From NCBI GenBank assembly GCA_024682655.1, contig JAIKYZ010000027.1:1071-65070 (forward strand): a DNA stretch of 64,000 bases. Reading direction: 5' to 3'. The notes beneath the pieces were generated by a model. It was not told the DNA's origin. It did no database searches and was given only the letters and a program-made list of their open reading frames with translations. Source of the DNA: Treponema sp. (lineage in GTDB: Bacteria; Spirochaetota; Spirochaetia; Treponematales; Treponemataceae). A program made the translations under genes and the position numbers. Below are positions 1 through 12,044 of this stretch, piece by piece; position 1 is the stretch's first letter, and every line of letters begins with the position of its first letter.

Positions 1-1
1 A

Positions 2-3000
2 GTATATGCAATTCTTGATGAAGTAGTAAAAGAGCATCCGGTTATGCTTAACCGTGCGCCTACACTTCACCGTCTTGGTATTCAGGCATTTGAACCTGTA
101 CTTGTAGAAGGAAAAGCTCTTAAGCTTCACCCACTCGCATGTAAGGCCTTCAACGCCGACTTCGATGGTGACCAGATGGCTATCCACGTACCTCTGACTC
201 AGGCAGCTCAGATGGAATGCTGGACCTTGATGCTTTCTGCAAGAAACCTTCTTGACCCAGCTAACGGTAATACAATCGTTGCTCCTTCTCAGGACATGGT
301 ACTTGGTATTTACTACATGACTGCTATTAAACCTAACGCAAAGGGAACCGGAAAACGTTTCAGTAATCCTGATGAAGTTAGAATGGCAGCTGAACTTGGA
401 AATATTGAATGGCAGGCTTTGATTAAAGTTCCTGCACCTAAAAAATCATTTGATGCAAATGCTCTTAAAGTAAAGAATGATGATGCCTTTACTCAGGGTA
501 ATCAGACTTTCGAAGAAGGTGAATTAATCGAAACTTCAGCTGGACGTCTTGCATTTAATGAAGCTATGCCAGAAGAAATTGATTATGTAAACCGCCAGAT
601 GTTTGATAAATCACTCAAGAAGATGATTGAACACGTTTATCATACAAAAGGTTCTTGGATTACAATCAAAATGCATGATGCTATCAAGGATGTTGGTTAT
701 AAAAACGCTACATTCTACGGTGCTACAATTTGTATCGATGATATTCTTGTTCCTGAAGAAAAAAAGAAGATGGTTGATGATGCAAATAAGCAGGTTGATG
801 ACATCATTGGAAAATACAGTAGAGGTATTATTACTGCAGAAGAAAGATATAACACAATCTTAAGTGTTTGGAATAAGACTAACGAAGACCTTACAAAGAT
901 AATGATGAGTAAGCTTGAAAAAGATAAGCAGGGCTTCAACACTATCTGGACAATGGCCAACTCTGGTGCCCGTGGTTCTCGTGGTCAGATTTCTCAGCTT
1001 GCTGCAATGCGTGGTTTGATGACTAAACCTAACGGATCAATCATCGAACTTCCTGTTAAGGCTAACTTTAAGGAAGGTCTTAACGTGATGGAATACTTTA
1101 TTTCTACTAACGCTGCCCGTAAGGGTCTTTCTGATACCGCTCTTAAGACTGCCGATGCCGGTTACATGACTCGTCGTCTTGTTGATGTTGCTCAGGATGT
1201 AGTAGTAAATGAAGAAGACTGTCGTACAATCAACGGTATTGATTACGCCGCTATTAAAGATGGTGATGATATTAAAATTCCTTTAAGCAAACGTATTGAA
1301 GGCCACTTTACAATTGAACGCGTTGTTCACCCAATTACAGGTGAATTACTTTGCGATGTAAATCAGTACATTGATGAAAACTTAGCAAAGAAAATTGAAG
1401 CCGCTGGTGTAGAAAAAGTAAAACTTAGAACTGTACTTACTTGTGAAGCTAAACATGGTATTTGTGTTCGCTGTTATGGTAAGAACCTTGCTCGTAATAA
1501 GATTGTTGAAATTGGTGAAGCAGTTGGTATTGTTGCAGCTCAGTCAATCGGTCAGCCTGGTACACAGTTGACACTTCGAACATTCCACTCTGGTGGTGCT
1601 GCCGAAATGTCTACAGATGATACAAATATTGTTCTTAAGTTTGATGCATTTATCACTGATATCAAAGGTAAGAGTGTTACAACTAAGAAGGGTTATGAAT
1701 TATTTACTCGTAAGGGTCAGATGACTGTAATCCGTATTTTGGATCAGGTTGCTCTTGAAAAAGGTGATAAACTTCTTATTGAAGATGGAAAGAGCCTCAT
1801 GAGAGGAACAGCTTTAATTTCTAGAGCTGGAAAAGATATTGAATCAAAAGTTACAGGTAAAGTTCTTGTAAAAGATGATGTTGTTTATATCGTAAGTAAA
1901 GAACAGAAAATCGAAATTGCAAATGGTTCTACAATTTACGTAAAAGCTGGTGATTTAGTTAAAAAATCAGTTCCAATTGGTGAATTTGAACCTTACTCAG
2001 AACCTATAATTGCTGAAAATGATGGTTATGTACACTTTGAAGACATTATTGTTGGTTCTACTCTTGATGAAAAGAAAGATAATGTTTCTGGTGCAATTGA
2101 ACGTACAATTTCTGGTTTACACCTTGATGTTAAACAGCCACGTATTCTTATTACAGATGAAGCTGGTAACGAATTAGGTACTTATTACCTTCCAGAAGGT
2201 GCTGTACTTAAGGTTGAAGATAAAGCCGCAGTTGAGAAGGGTATTACACTTGCAACTATTCCTAAGGCTGCTCAGAAAACAAACGATATTACTGGTGGTC
2301 TTCCACGTGTATCTGAATTGTTTGAAGCTCGTAAACCTAAGAATCCTTGTGTACTTGCAAAGATTTCTGGTACTGTTAAATTCGATGGTATCAACAAAGG
2401 TAAGCGTAAGGTAGTAGTTGAAGATAAGTTCGGTCAGAAGTATGAACATTTAGTACCAATGGCTAAACGTATGATCGTTCGTGATGGCGACCAGGTAGAA
2501 GCTGGTGAACAGCTTTGTGCAGGATCTCCAAATCCACAGGACGTACTTGCAATCCTTGGTGAAAATGCTTTACAGAATTACTTAATGGATGAAATCCAGT
2601 CTGTATATAGCGCACAGGGTGTAGATATCAATGATAAACATATTGGAATTATCGTTCGTCAGATGCTCCGCAAAGTTGAAATCGTATCTGTAGGTGATAC
2701 AAAATTCATCTTTGGTCAGCAGGTTGATAAATATAAGTTCCACGAAGAAAATCAAAGAGTTATTGCTGAAGGTGGTAAACCTGCTATTGGTCATCCAATG
2801 TTCCAGGGTATTACTAAGGCTTCTCTTGGTGTTGATTCATTTATTTCTGCAGCATCATTCCAGGAAACAACTCGTGTTCTTACAAATGCAGCTATTTCTG
2901 GAGCAACAGATGGACTTCATGGTATCAAGGAAAATGTTGCAATTGGTCATATGATTCCTGCCGGAACTGGTATTAAGGATTACAAAGATGTAAGACTTTT

Positions 3001-3121
3001 TGATGATACTGATAAGGATCTTGATTTACAGATGAATGAGATTCTTGAAAAACGTCGTCAGGAAGAAGAACTTGAATCTCAACATGAAGAAACAAGTTAT
3101 GAATCAGAAGAAAATGACTAA
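2..3121 (+). CDS. rpoC: RNA polymerase beta' subunit, 5'-truncated by the window edge
   Basis: [10 protein letters not shown] catalytic motif, [13 protein letters not shown] trigger loop, [13 protein letters not shown]; frame is open upstream of the ORF-track start at 44. Confidence 0.99.
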
Positions 3122-3143
3122 TTCTTCTATATAACATAATTAG

Positions 3144-3186
3144 AAAGGGTGGGGTGAGGATTAGATTTTCACTCCACCTTTTTTTA
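3144..3186 (+). terminator. Rho-independent terminator after rpoC
   Basis: AGGGTGGGGTGA...TCACTCCACCTT stem (G-U pairs) followed by a T-run. Confidence 0.8.
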
Positions 3187-3243
3187 TCTTTCCTGAGAAT
3201 TTATAAATTCAGTCAAAATTTATAGATACTTGGGTAAATTCTA

Positions 3244-3272
3244 TTGAATTCATTTTTTGAATTCACTAAAAT
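3244..3272 (+). promoter_or_regulatory. putative sigma70 promoter of rpsL-rpsG
   Basis: TTGAAT-N17-TAAAAT upstream of rpsL. Confidence 0.55.
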
Positions 3273-3349
3273 TGTTAAACCTATCCTTAATGGAGTTTTT
3301 ATTGAAAATCTTCCGGGGTGCTGACCGGAATAAAATAGGAGTATAGGCG

Positions 3350-3724
3350 ATGCCTACAATTAATCAATTAATCCGTCAGGGTCGTAAAGCGGCAGCTAAC
3401 AGAACCAAGTCTCCCGCACTTGATTCATGCCCTCAGAAACGTGGAGTTTGTACACGTGTTATGACTCAGACACCTAAGAAACCAAACTCAGCATTGAGAA
3501 AGATTGCTCGTGTTCGTTTGTCAAATGGTATTGAAGTAACTGCATACATTCCAGGTATTGGACATAACTTGCAGGAACACTCAGTAGTTTTAGTACGTGG
3601 TGGTCGTGTTAAGGACCTCCCTGGTGTACGTTATCACATTATTCGTGGTACAAAAGATACTCTTGGCGTTGAAGATCGTAAACGCGGTCGTTCAAAATAT
3701 GGTGCTAAGAGACCTAAGGCTTAA
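3350..3724 (+). CDS. rpsL: 30S ribosomal protein S12
   Basis: [11 protein letters not shown] and [11 protein letters not shown] motifs. Confidence 0.99.
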
Positions 3725-3736
3725 TGGAGGACTAAG

Positions 3737-4207
3737 ATGGGAAGACATAAGAAATCAATCGAACGTCCATTGATGCCGGATGTAAAATATAACAGCAAAG
3801 TAGTTTCAAAATTAGTTTGCCGTATGATGTTAGATGGAAAAAAAGATACTTGTCAGAAAATTGTTTATGAAGCAATGGATAAGTTAAAGGCTAAGACTGA
3901 CAAAGATCCTTTGGAAGTTCTTCTTAAGGCTCTTGATAATGTAAAACCAATGGTTGAAGTTAAATCTCGCCGTGTTGGTGGTGCTACATATCAGGTTCCA
4001 ATGGAGATTCGTGAATCACGTCGTGAAGCTCTTGCAATGAGATGGGTTATCGAAGCTGCAAGAAACAGATCTGGTCACGGTATGGCTGATACACTTGCTT
4101 CTGAATTATTAGATGCATTTAATAATACAGGTACAGCTTACAAGAAACGTGAAGACGTTCATAAGATGGCTGAAGCTAACAAAGCTTTTGCTCATTATAA
4201 GTGGTAG
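3737..4207 (+). CDS. rpsG: 30S ribosomal protein S7
   Basis: [15 protein letters not shown] and [12 protein letters not shown] motifs. Confidence 0.99.
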
Positions 4208-4225
4208 GTTGTTAGACCTTAACAG

Positions 4226-4258
4226 AAAGGCGTTTATTTTTATAAACGCCTTTTTTTA
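4226..4258 (+). terminator. Rho-independent terminator after rpsG
   Basis: perfect 12-bp stem AAAGGCGTTTAT/ATAAACGCCTTT, TTTT loop, T-run. Confidence 0.85.
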
Positions 4259-4288
4259 TTTTTAAATTAAAATTAAAGAGGTAATAAA

Positions 4289-5350
4289 ATGGCTGATGTA
4301 ATTGTTCGCCCTGTTAAATTGGACGATGCTTGTGATCTTTTGAAAATTTATTCACCCTATGTAGAAAATACGGCTGTCAGCTTTGAATATGAAACTCCAG
4401 GTCTTGAAGAATTTAAGGAGCGGATTAAAAACATTACTCAAAAGTTTCCTTATTTAGTTTTATGTAAAGATAATGAAATTCTCGGTTATACCTATGCGTC
4501 TACTTTCCATGCTAGAGCAGCTTATAATCATAGTGTTGAGCTTTCTATATATATAAGAAAAGATTGTCATAATTGTGGATATGGAAGAATTCTTTATAAC
4601 AAACTGGAAGAAGAATTAAAAAAGAAAGGTTTTTTAGTAATGTATGTCTGTATTGCTGCAAGTTCCAGAAATCCAGACAAAAATCTTACTGATGCCAGTA
4701 TTAAATTTCACGAAAAAATGGGATTTAATAATGCTGGATTTTTTAAGAATTGTGCTAAAAAATTTGGGTGTTTTTATAATATTGTTTATATGCAGAAAAA
4801 TATTTCTTCCGAATTTCAAGATAATGAAAAAACAATAGATACAAGTGAAGTTGTTGATGTTTATGACAATCAAAAACGGGTAACAGGAAAAACTATTCAG
4901 CGAAGTGATTTTTTTGAAAATAATGGACTTTTAAGACTTGTTATTCACCTTTGTATTTTTAATAAAGAAGGAAAAATGTTAATTCAGCAAAGGGCTTCTT
5001 CTAAAAAAACTGGTGCAAATATCTGGGATTTTTCGGTTAGTGGACAAGTAATGGCCGGGGAAAGTTCACAAGAAGGGGCTCAGAGAGAATTAAAAGAAGA
5101 GTTGGGTATTCTTGCGCAAATTTCTCAGGCTCCTCAATTTACTAAAATCTTTTTTAACAGTTACAACGATTATTATGTCCTTCATTTGGATTGTGATCCT
5201 GTAAATCTTAAGTTTAAAAAGGATGAAGTTCAGGATGTAAAATGGGCTTCAAGAGAAGAAGTTTTAAAATTAAGAGAGAAAAATAAATTTCTTTCATATC
5301 CTGAATCATTAATAGGATTGGTTTTTGATATTGGTCAGGGCAAAGATTAA
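4289..5350 (+). CDS. GNAT (phosphinothricin-acetyltransferase/YncA-like) N-acetyltransferase fused to a Nudix hydrolase
   Basis: N-half resembles Pat/YncA (TAVSFEYETP, ELSIYIR, GYGRILY, SIKFHEKMGF); C-half carries an exact Nudix box GQVMAGESSQEGAQRELKEELGI; SD GAGG upstream. Confidence 0.85.
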   Translation: MADVIVRPVKLDDACDLLKIYSPYVENTAVSFEYETPGLEEFKERIKNITQKFPYLVLCKDNEILGYTYASTFHARAAYNHSVELSIYIRKDCHNCGYGRILYNKLEEELKKKGFLVMYVCIAASSRNPDKNLTDASIKFHEKMGFNNAGFFKNCAKKFGCFYNIVYMQKNISSEFQDNEKTIDTSEVVDVYDNQKRVTGKTIQRSDFFENNGLLRLVIHLCIFNKEGKMLIQQRASSKKTGANIWDFSVSGQVMAGESSQEGAQRELKEELGILAQISQAPQFTKIFFNSYNDYYVLHLDCDPVNLKFKKDEVQDVKWASREEVLKLREKNKFLSYPESLIGLVFDIGQGKD

Positions 5351-5377
5351 AAAAGTCAAAAATGCTTTACCAACCTA

Positions 5378-5406
5378 TTGCATAAAAACTTTAAAAAATA
5401 TATAAA
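5378..5406 (+). promoter_or_regulatory. sigma70 promoter driving the tuf leader and tuf
   Basis: TTGCAT-N17-TATAAA. Confidence 0.7.
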
Positions 5407-5411
5407 TAAAA

Positions 5412-5876
5412 TAATACTCTTTAAATTAAGGGTTTACTATCTGCTTTTACGCAGAATTGGGTTCTTTGAGAAGACAGGCGGATTTATTCCGGTGCGACCG
5501 TAAAGTTAATCAGAAATGATTTTCAGGGAGGCGGCCCATGATTAAAGTAATTTGTTACCGTTGGTAATAATTATAGATAAACTTGATTTTGGGTTTCTGT
5601 CAGCCTTTAAGGCAAAACTCGAAATACCAAACCAAGTTGTCAAAATGTTAGAGATAACGAAAGGTGGTTACGGGTTTGAATCATTCCGAATTGATGGAAT
5701 GATAAATAATTTCTAATCTGTAAACTAATCTAAAATCTCTAATAATAGCAAATATTGTGTCTGCGAATGTGATGTTTCTTAGTGAAGAAATGTCTCATTC
5801 TGGCTTAAAGTGCAACACATAAAAATAAGTAAAGCCAGAAAAAGAAGAAAAAAAAGTTTCTGGCAAGGAGACAAAC
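5412..5876 (+). ncRNA. candidate long structured 5' leader or ncRNA upstream of tuf
   Basis: ~465 nt with no long ORF and many hairpins (GAAA and GAGA tetraloops); no tRNA/tmRNA/RNase P signature recognised. Confidence 0.5.
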
Positions 5877-7061
5877 ATGGCAAAGGAGAAGTTCGTTAGA
5901 ACTAAACCTCACATGAACGTTGGTACTATTGGTCACGTTGACCATGGTAAGACTACACTTTCTGCTGCTATCACTACATATTGTGGAAACAAATATGGTG
6001 ATAAAGTTCTTAAGTATGATGAAATTGATAACGCTCCAGAAGAGAAGGAACGTGGTATTACTATCAATACTCGTCACTTGGAATATCAGTCTGATAAGAG
6101 ACACTATGCTCATATCGACTGTCCAGGACATGCTGACTATATTAAGAACATGATTACTGGTGCTGCTCAGATGGATGGTTCTATCCTCGTAGTTTCTGCT
6201 CCAGATTCAGTTATGCCACAGACACGTGAACACTTGTTGCTCGCACGTCAGGTAGGTGTACCAAAGATCATCGTTTTCTTAAACAAAGTTGATATGGTTG
6301 ATGATCCTGATCTTCTTGAACTCGTAGTAGAAGAAGTAAAAGATACTATTAAAGAATATGGTTTCCAGGAAGACACTCCAATTATTAAGGGATCTGCTTT
6401 CAAAACATTGAACGACCCAGCTCCAGAAAACACAGCTTGTATCGAAGAACTTCTCCAGGCTATGGATACATGGTTTGATGATCCAGTTCGTGATGATCAG
6501 AAACCATTCTTGATGCCAATTGAAGACATCTTTACAATTTCAGGACGTGGTACTGTAGTAACAGGTAAGATCGAACGTGGTGTTGTAAATATGAACGATG
6601 CTGTACAGATCGTAGGTATCCGCCCAACAGCTGATACAACTGTAACAGGTATCGAAATGTTCCAGAAGACTCTTGATCAGGGTATGGCTGGTGATAACGT
6701 TGGTATCCTCCTTCGTGGTATTGAAAAGAAAGATGTTGTTCGCGGACAGGTTCTTGCTGCACCAAAATCTATCACTCCACACACAAAGTTCGAAGCTCAG
6801 ATTTACGTTCTTTCAAAGGAAGAAGGTGGACGTCACTCACCATTCTTCACTGGATATCGCCCACAGTTCTACTTCAGAACTACAGATATTACAGGAACTA
6901 TCGAACTTGAAGCTGGTACAGACATGGTAAAACCAGGTGATAACGTAAAAGTTATCGGTGAACTTATTCACCCTATCGCTATGGACGAAGGTCTTAAACT
7001 TGCTATCCGTGAAGGCGGTCACACAATCGCTTCTGGACAGGTAACAAAAATTATTGAATAG
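5877..7061 (+). CDS. tuf: elongation factor Tu
   Basis: [25 protein letters not shown]; SD AAGGAG. Confidence 0.99.
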
Positions 7062-7080
7062 TTTTTAATATTTTTGCTAC

Positions 7081-7110
7081 AAAAGGGCTGGTTATTTAAT
7101 CAGTCCTTTT
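7081..7110 (+). terminator. weak terminator/attenuator hairpin between tuf and rpsJ
   Basis: AAAAGGGCTG/CAGTCCTTTT stem, short T tail. Confidence 0.5.
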
Positions 7111-7132
7111 GTATCGCAATAGGAGTATAGAA

Positions 7133-7441
7133 ATGGCTAATGGAAAGATTCGTGTCAGACTTCGCGCATTTGACGTAGAGTTGATCGATCAGAGTGCTAA
7201 AGCCATCGTGCAGACTGTTCAGAAGGCTGGGGCAAAGGTTTCAGGACCTATCCCACTTCCAACAAAAATTAATAAGGTAACAGTATTGCGTTCACCTCAC
7301 GTAAACAAAAAGTCACGTGAGCAGTTTGAAATGCGTACTCACAAACGTCTTATTGATATTATGAACCCATCACAAGAAGTAATGGATTCATTGATGAAAC
7401 TTGAACTTCCTGCCGGTGTTGATGTAGTAATCACACAGTAG
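7133..7441 (+). CDS. rpsJ: 30S ribosomal protein S10
   Basis: [23 protein letters not shown]; start moved to the ATG after SD AGGAG. Confidence 0.99.
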
Positions 7442-7451
7442 TGAATTAAAA

Positions 7452-7557
7452 TGCCTGACCTTTATGGTTGGGAAAAGGGTACGGTCCCCTTGGATCTGGG
7501 ATGACGGCCTAAATTAATTTAATGGAATGATGGTAAGTAATTACCAGTCACTTCCAT
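7452..7557 (+). promoter_or_regulatory. structured intercistronic element before rplC (candidate r-protein leader)
   Basis: GC-rich stems plus the hairpin ATGGAA-TGA-TGGTAA-gtaa-TTACCA-gTCA-cTTCCAT ending just before the SD. Confidence 0.5.
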
Positions 7558-7573
7558 ATAGGAGAATATCAGA

Positions 7574-8194
7574 ATGAAAGGTCTGATTGCTAAAAAAGTT
7601 GGCATGACACAGATATTCGACGAAAGCGGTAATCTTACACCAGTAACCGTGATCCAGGTCGAGCCTAATGTTGTTGTTGCCAAGAAAACAAAGGAAAATT
7701 GCGGTTATGATGCAGTAGTTCTTGGTTTAGATGATATGAAAGCTTCTAAAGCAAGTAAAGCATATGCCGGTCAATTCCCAGAGAACATCAATCCAAAACG
7801 TCACTTGAAAGAGTTCCGTAGCTTTGAAAAGGACGTTAATGTTGGAGATGAAATTGGTCTTGAACTTTTTGAAGGTACACGTTTCTTAGACGTAACTGCA
7901 ACTTCAAAAGGTAAAGGTTTCCAGGGTGTTATGAAGAGATGGGGCTTCCATGGTGGTCGTGCTACTCATGGTTCTAAATTCCATCGTGAGCCAGGTGGTA
8001 CAGGTGAATGTACAACACCAGGACACAGTTTCAAAAATATTAAATTACCTGGAAGAATGGGATTCAAACGCGTAACAATTCAGAATTTGAAAGTAGTAAA
8101 AATTGATCCTGAATTGAAAGTAATTATGGTACGTGGTGCAGTTCCTGGAGTTAAGAATTGTACTCTTATCGTTAAGTCCGCAGTTAAGAAATAG
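7574..8194 (+). CDS. rplC: 50S ribosomal protein L3
   Basis: KKVGMTQIF, SKGKGFQGVMKRWGF. Confidence 0.99.
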   Translation: MKGLIAKKVGMTQIFDESGNLTPVTVIQVEPNVVVAKKTKENCGYDAVVLGLDDMKASKASKAYAGQFPENINPKRHLKEFRSFEKDVNVGDEIGLELFEGTRFLDVTATSKGKGFQGVMKRWGFHGGRATHGSKFHREPGGTGECTTPGHSFKNIKLPGRMGFKRVTIQNLKVVKIDPELKVIMVRGAVPGVKNCTLIVKSAVKK

Positions 8195-8204
8195 GAGATA
8201 GAAT

Positions 8205-8843
8205 ATGGAAAAGAAAGTATATTCAACTTCTGGAAAAGAGCTGCGTACAATTAATCTTGATGATAAAGTATTCGGTCTTCCAGTAAATGATGACGTAATC
8301 TATTATGCAATTACAAATGAATTAGCTAATAAACGTGTTGGTACAGCTTGTACAAAAACACGCAAAGAAGTTCACGGAAGTAATAACAAACCTTATAAAC
8401 AGAAGGGTACTGGTAATGCTCGTCGTGGTGATAAGAAATCTCCTATCACAGTAGGTGGTGGTACAATTTTTGGACCAAAACCAAGAGATTTCTCTTACTC
8501 AATTCCTAAAAAGGAAAAGAGACTTGCTATGATGACAATTTTAAGTGCTCACGCACAGGGTGATAGACTTACTGTTGTTGAAGATTTTACTATTGATAGT
8601 GGTAAAACAAAGGATTTAGTAAAGATTCTTAATAATTTTGCTAAAGATGAAAAGACAGTATTAATCTTGAAAGATGATGATTCAAAAGTAAAACAGGCAG
8701 GACGTAATATTCCTAACCTTACATTCCTTTCTTATAACCGTCTTAACGCTCATGATTTATATTATGGACGCAAAGTTGTAGTTATGGAAAGCGCAGTTAA
8801 ATCTCTTTCAGATTTCTATGCTAATGATAAGGAGGCTAAATAA
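8205..8843 (+). CDS. rplD: 50S ribosomal protein L4
   Basis: KPYKQKGTGNARRG, GGGTIFGPKPRD. Confidence 0.99.
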   Translation: MEKKVYSTSGKELRTINLDDKVFGLPVNDDVIYYAITNELANKRVGTACTKTRKEVHGSNNKPYKQKGTGNARRGDKKSPITVGGGTIFGPKPRDFSYSIPKKEKRLAMMTILSAHAQGDRLTVVEDFTIDSGKTKDLVKILNNFAKDEKTVLILKDDDSKVKQAGRNIPNLTFLSYNRLNAHDLYYGRKVVVMESAVKSLSDFYANDKEAK

Positions 8844-9127
8844 TGAATTACGAAGATATTCTTATTGAACCTGTTGTATCAGAAAAAGCAAGTGCTTTAC
8901 GTGAACAGAATAAATATGTATTCATCGTACAGCCAAGTGCAACAAAAACTCAGATTAAAGAAGCTGTTGCACGTATGTTTAAAGTAAAAGTTGTCGGCTG
9001 CACAACAATGAATGTGCTTGGAAAAATGAAACGTCTTCGTGGTAAACCAGGACGTACTTCTTCATACAAGAAAGCAATCGTTCGCCTTGCAGAAGGTGAA
9101 ACAATCGCTGTGTTTGAAGGTGTTTAA
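8843..9127 (+). CDS. rplW: 50S ribosomal protein L23
   Basis: PVVSEKA, YKKAIVRL; operon position. Confidence 0.98.
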   Translation: MNYEDILIEPVVSEKASALREQNKYVFIVQPSATKTQIKEAVARMFKVKVVGCTTMNVLGKMKRLRGKPGRTSSYKKAIVRLAEGETIAVFEGV

Positions 9128-9154
9128 TCCAAGTAGGAATTAAGGGGAATTAAG

Positions 9155-9982
9155 ATGGCTCTTAAAGTATTTAAGCCAATGACACCAGGTACACGTGGAC
9201 GTGTTGACTTGGTTCGTAGTGAACTGACAACCGATAGACCCGAAAAAACTTTGGTGTCAGGTAAAAAGTCAAATGGTGGACGCGGAGCTGGTGGTCGTAT
9301 TTCTGTACGTCATCAGGGTGGCGGTCACAAAAGACTTTATCGTGATATTGATTTCAAACGTGATAAGCACGGTATCCCAGGAACTGTCAAAGCAATTGAA
9401 TATGATCCTAACAGAAGTGCTAATATCGCTTTGATTTATTATGCTGACGGTGATAAACGTTATATCATCGCTCCTAAAGGATTGCAGGTTGGCCAGAAGA
9501 TTATGTCTGGTGATAATGCAACTCCAACAGTTGGAAATGCACTTCCTCTAAATGCAATTCCAGTTGGTTTCACAATTCATAATATTGAATTGACACTTGG
9601 TAAAGGTGGTCAGTTGGTTCGCTCAGCTGGAGCTAGCGCTATGATCGCTGGTCGTGAAGGCGATTATGTAATCGTACGTTTACCTTCAAGTGAAATGAGA
9701 AAAATTAACGGTAAGTGTTACGCTACAATTGGTGTTGTAGGTAATGAAGAACACATGAACGTTAAGCTTGGTAAAGCTGGTCACAAACGCTGGATGGGTA
9801 TCCGTCCTACAGTTCGTGGTATGGCAATGAACCCAGTTGATCATCCACTTGGTGGTGGTGAAGGTGCCGGTAAAGGTCGTAACCCTGTTACTCCATGGGG
9901 ACAGCCTTGTAAAGGTTACCAGACACGTAACAAGAGAAAGACATCTAGCAATTTTATTGTTAGCCGTCGTAAGAAGAAGTAA
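9155..9982 (+). CDS. rplB: 50S ribosomal protein L2
   Basis: [30 protein letters not shown]. Confidence 0.99.
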
Positions 9983-9999
9983 TCGCAGAGGAGATAATA

Positions 10000-10287
10000 G
10001 TGTCAAGATCTGTTAAGAAAGGACCATTCGTAGAAAAATCACTCTACAAAAAGGTTCAGGCAATGAATAAAGAAGCAGATAAGAAGATTATTAAAACATA
10101 TTCTCGCTGCTCAACAATCATCCCAGAAATGGTAGGTAATACTATTTCTGTTTATAATGGTAAATCATGGATTCCTGTATATGTTACAGAAAACTTAGTT
10201 GGACATAAACTCGGTGAGTTTGCACCAACTCGTACATATCATGGACATGGTGGTTCAGACAAAACAGCCGCTAAGGCTAATTCATAG
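10000..10287 (+). CDS. rpsS: 30S ribosomal protein S19 (GTG start)
   Basis: [21 protein letters not shown]. Confidence 0.99.
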
Positions 10288-10296
10288 GTGGATATT

Positions 10297-10653
10297 ATGG
10301 CTGAGAAAAAAGGTTATGTAGCCACTACAAAATTCCTTATTGCATCACCAACTAAGGTTCGTCCAGTTGCTAATGTAATTAAACAGAAGTCCTATTCGGA
10401 AGCTATGGCAATTCTTGCTAATATGCCACAGAAAGGTGCAGATTTAATCAGTGCTACTTTAAAGTCAGCTGCTGCAAACGCACTCAACCAGAATAGCAAG
10501 TTAGATGAAGATATGCTTTACGTTAAAGAAATAAGAATTGACGAAGGTCCAAGACTCAAGAGAGTATGGTTCCGTGCACGTGGTCGTGCTGATCAGCTCT
10601 TAAAACGTATGTGCCATATTACCGTTGTCGTTGACGAAAAGGCGGGGGAATAA
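10297..10653 (+). CDS. rplV: 50S ribosomal protein L22
   Basis: [23 protein letters not shown]. Confidence 0.98.
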
Positions 10654-10654
10654 A

Positions 10655-11398
10655 GTGGGACAGAAAGTTAATCCTATTGGTTTACGTTTAGGTGTAAACA
10701 AGACATGGCAGTCACGTTGGTATGCAGATCCACGTGAATATGCAGATTTAGTTCTTGAAGATATCAAAATCAGAAATATGGTTCGTGATCTTCCAGAATG
10801 TAAAAATGCCGATATAGCTGAAATTGAAATTGTTCGCCATCCACAGCGCGTAACAATCATTATTCATACAGCTCGCCCAGGTGTTATTATTGGTGTAAAA
10901 GGTGCATCAATCGAAAAGATTAGTGCAGATATTCAGAAGCAGCTTACAAAGAAAGTACAGATTAAGATTAAAGAAATCAAACGTGCTGATTTGAACGCAT
11001 CATTAATCGCTCAGAATATCGGTCGTCAGTTAGTTGGTCGTGGATCATTCCGTAAGGCAATGAAACAGGCTGTAAGTAGCGCTATGAGAGCCGGAGCTTT
11101 AGGAATTAAAGTTCGTCTTAGTGGTCGTCTCGGTGGAGCAGATATGTCTCGTACTGAAGAACACAAAGAAGGACGTGTTCCACTTCATACTCTTCGTGCT
11201 GACATTGATTACGGTACATTTGAAGCTCTTACTACATACGGAAAAATTGGTATTAAAGTATGGGTTTATAATGGAATGAATTATGGTATTGACCATAATG
11301 AAGATGCTGGTCAGCTTGTAAAGAAGCCAAGACGTCAATCTCGTCAGGCTGCTGATAAGACTGAGGGTTCTGATTCTGCTAAAAAGGCAAGGAGTTAG
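10655..11398 (+). CDS. rpsC: 30S ribosomal protein S3 (GTG start)
   Basis: [26 protein letters not shown]. Confidence 0.99.
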
Positions 11399-11401
11399 TA
11401 T

Positions 11402-11821
11402 ATGCCACTTAGTCCTAAAAGAGTAATTCACCGTAAGGTACAGCGTGGACGTGAAAAAGGTAACGCTACACGTAACAATACAATTGATTTTGGTGATATC
11501 GCATTAGTTGCTATGGAACCAACTTGGCTTGACGCCAGAGTTATCGAAGCAGCCCGTGTTGCTATCAACCGTAAGTTGGATCGTAAAGGTAATGTTTGGA
11601 TCAGAATTTTCCCAGATAAACCTATTACTAAGAAACCAGCTGAAGTTCGTATGGGTAAGGGTAAAGGTGCTCCAGATCATTGGGCAGCTGTTATCAAACC
11701 AGGTATGATTATGTTTGAAGTTGGTGGTGTTGATCTTGCATTGGCTCAGAGAGCACTTGAGCTTGCTGCAGACAAATTACCAGTTAAAACTAAAATAGCT
11801 TATAAGCCAACAAGAGACTAG
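11402..11821 (+). CDS. rplP: 50S ribosomal protein L16
   Basis: [24 protein letters not shown]. Confidence 0.99.
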
Positions 11822-11831
11822 GAGGAATAAG

Positions 11832-12044
11832 ATGGCTAATTCAAAGAAAAAGAATGACAATGAACTGTCTTATAAAGAACTAGTTGCTAAGCGTGATGAG
11901 CTTAAAAAGGAATACATGGATCTTCGTTTTAAAATGATTATTTCCCATGTAGATAATCCAATGCAGAAACGTACAATTCGTAGAGAAATTGCACGTTTGA
12001 ACACATTTATTCGCCAGAAAGAAATTGCTGGCGATAATAAATAG
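11832..12044 (+). CDS. rpmC: 50S ribosomal protein L29
   Basis: operon position; RREIARLNT motif. Confidence 0.96.
   Translation: MANSKKKNDNELSYKELVAKRDELKKEYMDLRFKMIISHVDNPMQKRTIRREIARLNTFIRQKEIAGDNK

Follow-up and report, generated by a model that had tools for sequence, protein, structure and literature searches.

In the window, by which we mean the whole stretch of 64,000 nucleotides of a Treponema sp. genome that was analysed (contig JAIKYZ010000027.1), the region 3350-7061 shows a str-operon order of genes, rpsL-rpsG-(terminator)-leader-tuf, without fusA; EF-G-like genes are located on other contigs (C72, plus C55 or C28 with weak tuf similarity). The terminator 3' of rpsG lies at 4224-4255 and is followed by an open reading frame (4289-5350) for a fusion of a GNAT acetyltransferase with a NUDIX domain, comprising 353 aa. 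Since most aligned relatives have rpsG with its terminator directly before the leader promoter, the GNAT-NUDIX gene looks like a lineage-specific insertion. A gap of 526 nt separates it from the tuf gene (5877-7061), which was assigned by Pfam, and the leader described here is located inside this gap. Downstream of tuf follow rpsJ (start at 7134), rplC and the remaining ribosomal protein (r-protein) genes. The spacer between tuf and rpsJ (7062-7133) contains a 12-bp hairpin (ACAAAAGGGCUG...CAGUCCUUUUGU, about 7081-7112) with no U-tract after it. Rather than a terminator, this hairpin seems to be an element for processing or stability, or a partial attenuator, and the Shine-Dalgarno sequence (SD) of rpsJ, UAGGAG, is found at 7120-7125 upstream of the ATG at 7134. 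A scan for tRNA and tmRNA genes in positions 1-12000 found none. The features of the leader and of the tuf initiation region are as follows.

5378-5407, plus strand: promoter-like sequence TTGCAT-17-TATAAAT, conserved in relatives
5440-5455, plus strand: variable hairpin preceding the BoxA-like block
5461-5471, plus strand: BoxA-like sequence GTTCTTTGAGA, agreeing with GYTCTTTAANA at 10/11 positions
5756-5764, plus strand: 5' strand of helix P1, UGUGU(C)UGC, pairing with 5812-5819
5765-5800, plus strand: hairpin P2, with a conserved base GAA/UUC and a variable top, identified by covariation
5798-5806, plus strand: upstream partner of the alternative helix, UUCUGGCUU, forming 9 perfect pairs with 5832-5840 in the window
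5801-5811, plus strand: bulge UGGCUUAAAGU of 11 nt separating the 3' strands of P2 and P1, recognised by its invariance
5812-5819, plus strand: 3' strand of P1, GCA(A)CACA, from RNAalifold and pair counts
5820-5833, plus strand: A-rich single-stranded linker, from 109 relatives
5834-5864, plus strand: hairpin P3 adjoining the SD, with 5' arm GCCAGAAA (5834-5841), A-rich loop (5842-5856) and 3' arm UUUCUGGC (5857-5864)
5865-5870, plus strand: SD AAGGAG, followed by a 6-nt spacer and the tuf ATG (5877-5879)

The 3' end of the 16S rRNA of the genus reads ...GAUCACCUCCUUUCU, and the spacer between GGAG and AUG measures 6 nt in 97 of 109 relatives.

An earlier note on this DNA had described two mutually exclusive stems abutting the tuf SD and had interpreted them as a translational switch for EF-Tu synthesis. 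All of its coordinates proved exact, with TTCTGGCTT at 5798-5806, AAGCCAGAA(A) at 5832-5841, TTTCTGGC at 5857-5864, the SD AAGGAG at 5865-5870 and the start codon at 5877. A script confirmed that AAGCCAGAA (5832-5840) pairs perfectly with the upstream partner over 9 bp and that GCCAGAAA, beginning at 5834, pairs perfectly with 5857-5864 over 8 bp, ending at the SD. The hairpin GAATG...CATTC (5765-5800), proposed as a third competitor, indeed shares three nucleotides (TTC) of its 3' arm with the upstream partner. In structural terms, this partner consists of the base of P2 (UUC) and the first bases of the bulge (UGGC..), and the segment for which both partners compete is the 5' arm of P3. Among 5000 shuffles of the 127-nt leader that preserved dinucleotides, 8.9 % contained a perfect 8-bp stem and 2.7 % a 9-bp stem anywhere; one segment with two distinct 8-bp partners was found in 0.1 %. 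The double pairing is real and goes beyond chance expectation in this window. Furthermore, RNAfold assigns the region 5740-5900 a free energy of -33.6 kcal/mol (z = -2.87 compared to shuffles), and the predicted fold contains P2 as well as the 5834-5864 hairpin.

The comparison with relatives was based on 121 instances, representing 109 distinct Treponema tuf leaders, and the structure was derived from RNAalifold, a covariance model and pair counts. It shows that the module (5756-5876) is composed of a long helix, P1 stacked on P2, with an invariant bulge, followed by the linker and by P3 flush with the SD. P1 (UGUGU.UGC/GCA.CACA) comprises 8 pairs with 98.4 % of the cells paired and is nearly invariant within the genus; its U8 pairs with A in 53 and with G in 32 sequences. 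Because of this invariance the evidence for the pairing of P1 is thermodynamic and comes from the comparison with other genera, and the replacement of the inner pairs UGC/GCA by GUA/UAC in sister genera supports P1 as a helix. P2 varies in length between 34 and 53 nt and shows double compensatory changes in 6 of 8 modelled pairs, with 28-41 sequences per variable pair. The bulge, whose UGGC serves as upstream partner in the alternative pairing, is invariant apart from an exchange of C to U in three species, both among 38 leaders gathered without a sequence pattern and at 17/17 tuf loci of the genus from a protein search; within it a mini-stem GCU(UAA)AGU is predicted to be possible. The linker of the 109 relatives measures 11-18 nt (median 13), contains 57 % A and starts with a nearly invariant UAAAA.

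The stem abutting the SD, part of the original proposal, is real. P3 was found in 109/109 relatives with -6 to -15 kcal/mol, and all 7 of its modelled pairs show double compensatory changes (for example GUC/GAC, GCU/AGC, UCCUGU/ACAGGA and GUUGAAAC/GUUUCAAC); its base is GCC...GGC in most relatives, and it covers at most the first A of AAGGAG. For P2 and P3 together, 13 pairs carry double changes, in 251 cells compared to 65 in shuffles (0/500 shuffles reach the observed value); overall, 91.8 % of the cells pair in the model versus 33-54 % when the partners are slid. P1, P2, the mini-stem in the bulge and P3 also appear in the minimum free energy (MFE) folds of the relatives. In the 38 leaders gathered without a sequence pattern 27 core positions are invariant, amid a freely drifting P2 top, P3 stem and loops.

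The alternative pairing is kept to a much smaller extent. Of the 109 relatives, 39 have 4 bp, 33 have 5 bp and another 33 have 6 bp as their longest contiguous pairing between the P3 arm and the bulge, and the core that is retained is the bulge (C)UGGC with GCC(R)(G) of P3. The 9-bp helix is specific to this genome, whose alternative duplex (-13.9 kcal/mol) is the strongest among all 109. Likewise, the duplicated TTCTGGC, on whose conservation the earlier note had staked its model, persists in its second copy merely as YYGGC and is replaced entirely in some species (ACAGGA, GUUUCAAC, GAGAUU). Over the 109 species, which are related by descent, the duplex between arm and bulge has a mean energy of -6.8 to -7.0 kcal/mol, compared to -3.7 for shuffled arms, of which 0/200 come as low, and to -3.9 with the helix flipped. 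L015, L109 (UCCUGU), L130, L121 and L044 possess little or no complementarity, yet P3 and the bulge are intact; in L015 and L109 the arm-to-bulge duplex reaches just -0.9 kcal/mol. As UGGC is invariant even in these two, where the P3 arm cannot pair with it, the bulge must do more than pair with P3. If the core of the alternative helix is imposed on the fold, this costs on average 7.2 kcal/mol relative to the P3 state (3.4 kcal/mol in the window), and the P3 state is the MFE structure in nearly all species. The SD is buried in neither conformer, and the alternative helix frees the 3' arm of P3 alone; in this respect the proposed logic of a riboswitch expression platform does not hold. In addition, the alternative helix crosses P1, so that the two would coexist in an H-type pseudoknot and not be mutually exclusive. 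Covariation among relatives, which had been suggested as a check, is clear for P2 and P3 and uninformative for the alternative pairing, because the bulge never varies except for the C to U exchange, which keeps a wobble. What stands of the proposed EF-Tu switch is a selected, structured tuf leader that keeps part of the competing complementarity, whereas a two-state switch was not demonstrated. We infer that the complementarity between arm and bulge is a secondary, genus-specific feature and not the conserved core of the mechanism.

The distribution of the module is narrow. A tuf protein search retrieved 17 loci of the same genus, 17/17 with this leader; the identity of the tuf proteins goes down to 81-85 % inside the genus. 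When genomes representing species were scanned for the exact pattern, more than 100 instances were added, each directly before tuf and each in Treponema, including T. bryantii, T. ruminis, T. porcinum, T. zioleckii, T. socranskii and many metagenome-assembled genomes from gut and rumen. The covariance model finds exactly one copy in the genome of the window and one in each of 55/55 sampled genomes of the genus; outside the genus, among 301 genomes of the order, it detects merely weak variants in two other genera. The best sequence look-alike in the same genome (contig C2:791, 14/15 positions) lies inside a coding frame (YFWLKV) and was rejected as a second copy. Exact-pattern matches outside Treponema (Woeseiaceae, Halomonas, Shewanella and others) have no tuf downstream and different flanks; as 596 Gb of sequence should yield about 35 matches by chance, they were set aside. 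The gammaproteobacterial matches to CTGGYTTAAAGTGCGGCACA (Woeseiaceae, Halomonas, Shewanella, Pseudohongiella; loci L031, L036, L041, L050, L069, L071, L102, L107 and others) have conserved flanks in common (..TTCTTTGC CTGGCTTAAAGTGCGGCACATA..) and probably belong to a conserved gene encoded on the other strand, unrelated to the Treponema leader. Searches with cmscan against Rfam 15 gave no family match in 3000-8000 (E up to 1) or in 5380-5900 (E up to 10), the only hits being noise (snoRNA, miRNA, and the L20 leader at unrelated terminators). A description of the Treponema tuf leader was also not encountered in full-text literature searches or in the first 200 of 408 supplementary files of a human-microbiome catalogue of structured RNAs. 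In kind, the module is a structured leader acting in cis on a translation operon, and neither Rfam 15 nor the searched literature contains it. One locus per genome and a narrow range are typical of an autoregulatory leader rather than of a metabolite riboswitch.

The module closes a leader of about 460 nt that precedes the tuf-rpsJ-r-protein operon and is conserved across the family. In relatives rpsG and its terminator are followed by a conserved promoter-like TTGAnn-17-TATAAAT and then by roughly 300 nt of conserved structured RNA leading into P1, and the start of the leader is kept in 15/15 aligned relatives of the genus, in 91 distinct leaders and in most sister genera of the family. The conservation of the promoter suggests that the module is co-transcribed with the long leader. 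In the window, about 250 nt of conserved structured RNA come after the BoxA-like sequence; conserved blocks between 5378 and 5750 are CGUAAAGUUAAU, UUUUCAGG, ACCAAACC-AGUUGUC, GAUAAUGAU-GGUGGU and a hairpin with the loop CGAAUWGAUGR; this part of the RNA has no Rfam match either. A 9-codon upstream reading frame in this region, MIKVICYRW (5538-5567, with an SD-like GGGAGG), is an unlikely leader peptide, because its ATG and frame are lost even in the closest relatives (L002, L003). A further upstream frame, starting from the AUG in 'AUGCC' at the base of P3, is missing in the window (AAAGCC) and in several relatives.

The beginning of the long leader resembles the BoxA/Nus leaders of rrn, suhB and rpsJ (PMC5725501), in that a variable hairpin is followed by GGGUUCUUUGAGA, which matches 10 of the 11 positions of the BoxA consensus GYTCTTTAANA (PMC5725501). 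The rrn leaders of the genus contain a similar hairpin, followed by GCUUUUUGAAAGG, GCUGUUUGACAGG or GUUUUUUGACAUA, and the operon downstream of the tuf leader encodes NusE (S10). BoxA elements have been described before rpsJ or rpsJ-containing operons, and autoregulation by NusE was proposed (Baniulyte et al. 2017; PMC5725501). Unlike in these leaders, the candidate BoxA-like block is separated from the module, which follows about 400 nt downstream, and the bulge is not a BoxA: the module itself has no match to GYTCTTTAANA, the bulge region reading UUCUGGCUUAAAG. A pairing of the bulge (CUUAAAG) with the BoxA-like block (CUUUGAG) over 7 bp including one G-U was considered and rejected, as about two such matches are expected by chance per 400-nt leader and the pairing is lost in sister genera.

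The tuf loci of nine other genera of the family were examined for comparison. Most of them share the long leader with its promoter, variable hairpin and the blocks GGGUUCUUUGAGAGUCA, CCGUAAAG, GCCAAACC..GUCAUC, AGGUGG and CGAAUnGAUGG, and at least five possess the P1/P2 hairpin. Their bulge is rich in A and U (UUAUAAUA, UUAAAAUA) and lacks GGC. In L203, L205, L207, L209, L210 and L204 the hairpin is followed by a run of 7-8 U, a terminator-like arrangement 20-110 nt before tuf that resembles attenuators based on intrinsic termination. In the genus itself P1 is followed by the A-rich UAAAAAUAAG and P3 by the SD AAGGAG, so that there is no terminator, and a terminator scan of 5200-6000 returned 0 sites. 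The GCC...GGY flank of the SD is present in sister genera that lack the bulge GGC; it is older, and its conservation is therefore independent of the alternative pairing. To judge from the sequences compared, this genus acquired UGGC, the A-rich linker and the long variable P3 together as innovations of its own, a pattern that would fit a shift from termination-type to translation-type control within the family.

The reading that we favour, with a probability of roughly 40 %, is that the module acts as a translational operator for a trans-acting factor. It is drawn from the single locus per genome, the narrow range, the invariant unpaired bases and the operon of translation genes downstream, the module sitting directly before tuf-rpsJ-rplC.... 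The bulge and its sequence-conserved flanking helices would form the docking site, and the most likely candidate for the factor is a protein of the translation apparatus that is made from the operon or acts on it, such as an r-protein of the S10 operon, S10/NusB or EF-Tu. Occupancy of the site would control the access of the 30S subunit to the tuf initiation region, which is 13-18 nt and one hairpin away; as P3 takes up at most one base of the SD, a block of initiation by occupancy is something that we infer. The outcome would be a translational feedback on the synthesis of EF-Tu and probably also of the S10-operon proteins. The complementarity between GCC(R) of the P3 arm and UGGC of the bulge could couple occupancy of the bulge to the opening of P3, either through a pseudoknot or through invasion.

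The leader of the E. coli S10 operon, which is bound by L4 and autoregulatory, likewise has a narrow distribution and occurs at one locus per genome. The Treponema module resembles such S10/L4-type leaders as a structured 5' leader of a translation operon including rpsJ-rplC-rplD, with covarying helices around invariant unpaired nucleotides. It differs from the S10 leader in its first gene, which is tuf and not rpsJ, and in the absence of an L4-type terminator hairpin. Most characterised r-protein leaders mimic rRNA. Neither rRNA mimicry nor similarity to any Rfam leader was detected here, and the lack of mimicry counts against the operator: matches to 16S or 23S rRNA of the same genus, in either orientation, do not go beyond 7-mers, and on rRNA the covariance model, run with filters off, reaches at most 6.3 bits. 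Mimicry at the level of structure could go unnoticed in such comparisons.

The translational operator has to be weighed against several other readings. The closest to the original proposal is a two-state switch, in which the 5' arm of P3 pairs either with the bulge or with the P3 3' arm and a ligand, a tRNA or a protein would set EF-Tu translation. In this case an H-type pseudoknot would form with P1 and place the A-rich linker in its groove, and the signal would be GTP, ppGpp or an uncharged tRNA whose GCCA pairs with UGGC. The logic is that of riboswitch platforms and H-type pseudoknot aptamers (preQ1, SAM-II), where one arm has two mutually exclusive partners, one in the conserved part and the other beside the SD, and an A-rich tail follows the first helix; covarying helices with invariant junction nucleotides (P1/P2 and the bulge) are a riboswitch-type feature as well. 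The rarity of the double pairing in shuffles, the enrichment of the arm-to-bulge duplex over both controls, the presence of at least 4 contiguous pairs in 107/109 relatives, the bulge C to U exchange that keeps a wobble with a G of P3, and the joint appearance of UGGC, linker and long P3 in the genus all speak for such a switch. However, the nested alternative is energetically costly nearly everywhere, some relatives dispense with it while keeping P3 and the bulge, the invariant bulge offers no support by covariation, and the GCC...GGY on the SD side predates the GGC of the bulge. Unlike in riboswitches, the SD is never sequestered, and instead of a spread across several genes or many taxa the element always occurs before tuf, once per genome and in one genus, without an Rfam match at E up to 10. 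The UGGC bulge is also reminiscent of the UGGN bulge of T-boxes, but Rfam T-box models gave no hit at the same threshold and a specifier architecture was not recognised. Altogether we regard the two-state switch as unlikely. An evolutionary variant, according to which an ancestral attenuator hairpin was rebuilt into an H-type pseudoknot sensor (UGGC, linker, GCC(R)) that toggles the SD-flanking hairpin, appears still more doubtful; GTP or ppGpp, the GCCA end of uncharged tRNA, EF-Tu or S10-NusB may be its signal.

A constitutive architecture without any sensing is a possible, if not very probable, explanation. P1/P2 would descend from a leader-terminal hairpin, the attenuator of the sister genera, and serve RNA processing or mRNA stability; P3 would insulate the ribosome binding site, its A-rich loop together with the linker would let ribosomes stand by or S1 land, so that tuf is translated at a very high rate, and the alternative pairing would be incidental. 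This agrees with the P1/P2 hairpin and terminator-like U-run of the sister genera, with the block AUGCCUUUAAUCUGGUAAGGAGGAUCAA before the SD, which is invariant in four genera, with the base composition of the P3 loops (61 % A, 3.5 % C) and of the linker, and with the thermodynamic dominance of the P3 state. It leaves unexplained, however, why 11 unpaired nucleotides and sequence-invariant helices persist amid freely drifting stems, and why the element was retained and even tightened in a genus that has given up the U-run. The invariant bases could also be a signal at the DNA level, with TTAAAGT of the bulge as -10 region of an internal tuf promoter, whose transcripts would start near 5818-5822 and carry linker, P3 and SD only. 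At the equivalent place the DNA of sister genera reads TATAAT (g16, g20) or TAAAAT (g23), and L209 has a near-consensus TTGAAA-17-TATAAT. The hexamer of the genus is TAAAGT, though, without a conserved -35 or TG extension, the -35 position falling into the freely covarying P2 arm; a promoter scan of 5750-5830 finds none, and the consensus promoter shared by the family sits 400 nt upstream. As 25 contiguous invariant bases and the compensatory changes of P2 point to selection on the RNA, we consider an internal promoter very unlikely. Even less probable is a control by CsrA, whose dimer would repress tuf translation through a dual site formed by GGA in the P3 loop and GGA in the SD. The genome encodes CsrA (86.7 bits, contig C122), and a GGA in the P3 loop, often as AAGGAA, is present in 34/109 species compared to 12.8 ± 3.0 expected (maximum 22 in 500 shuffles); but the P3 loop of the window, AAGAAGAAAAAAAAG, has no GGA, as is the case in 69 % of the relatives, and P1/P2 and the bulge would be left without explanation.

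EF-Tu is among the most abundant bacterial proteins. Outside E. coli, little is understood of how its synthesis is matched to the output of ribosomes, and the feedback on tufB in E. coli is not known to have been explained by a mechanism. Throughout a genus of gut and rumen spirochaetes about 27 leader nucleotides remain invariant within a defined fold directly ahead of the ribosome binding site of tuf, and this compact RNA of about 120 nt is a concrete target for the study of binding partners and of translational feedback. If the factor proves to be an r-protein, S10-NusB or EF-Tu, the module would represent a new autoregulatory circuit; a small molecule or a tRNA as factor would make it a new riboswitch class. 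The pseudoknot sensor, if true, would be a new class of RNA sensors dedicated to EF-Tu synthesis.
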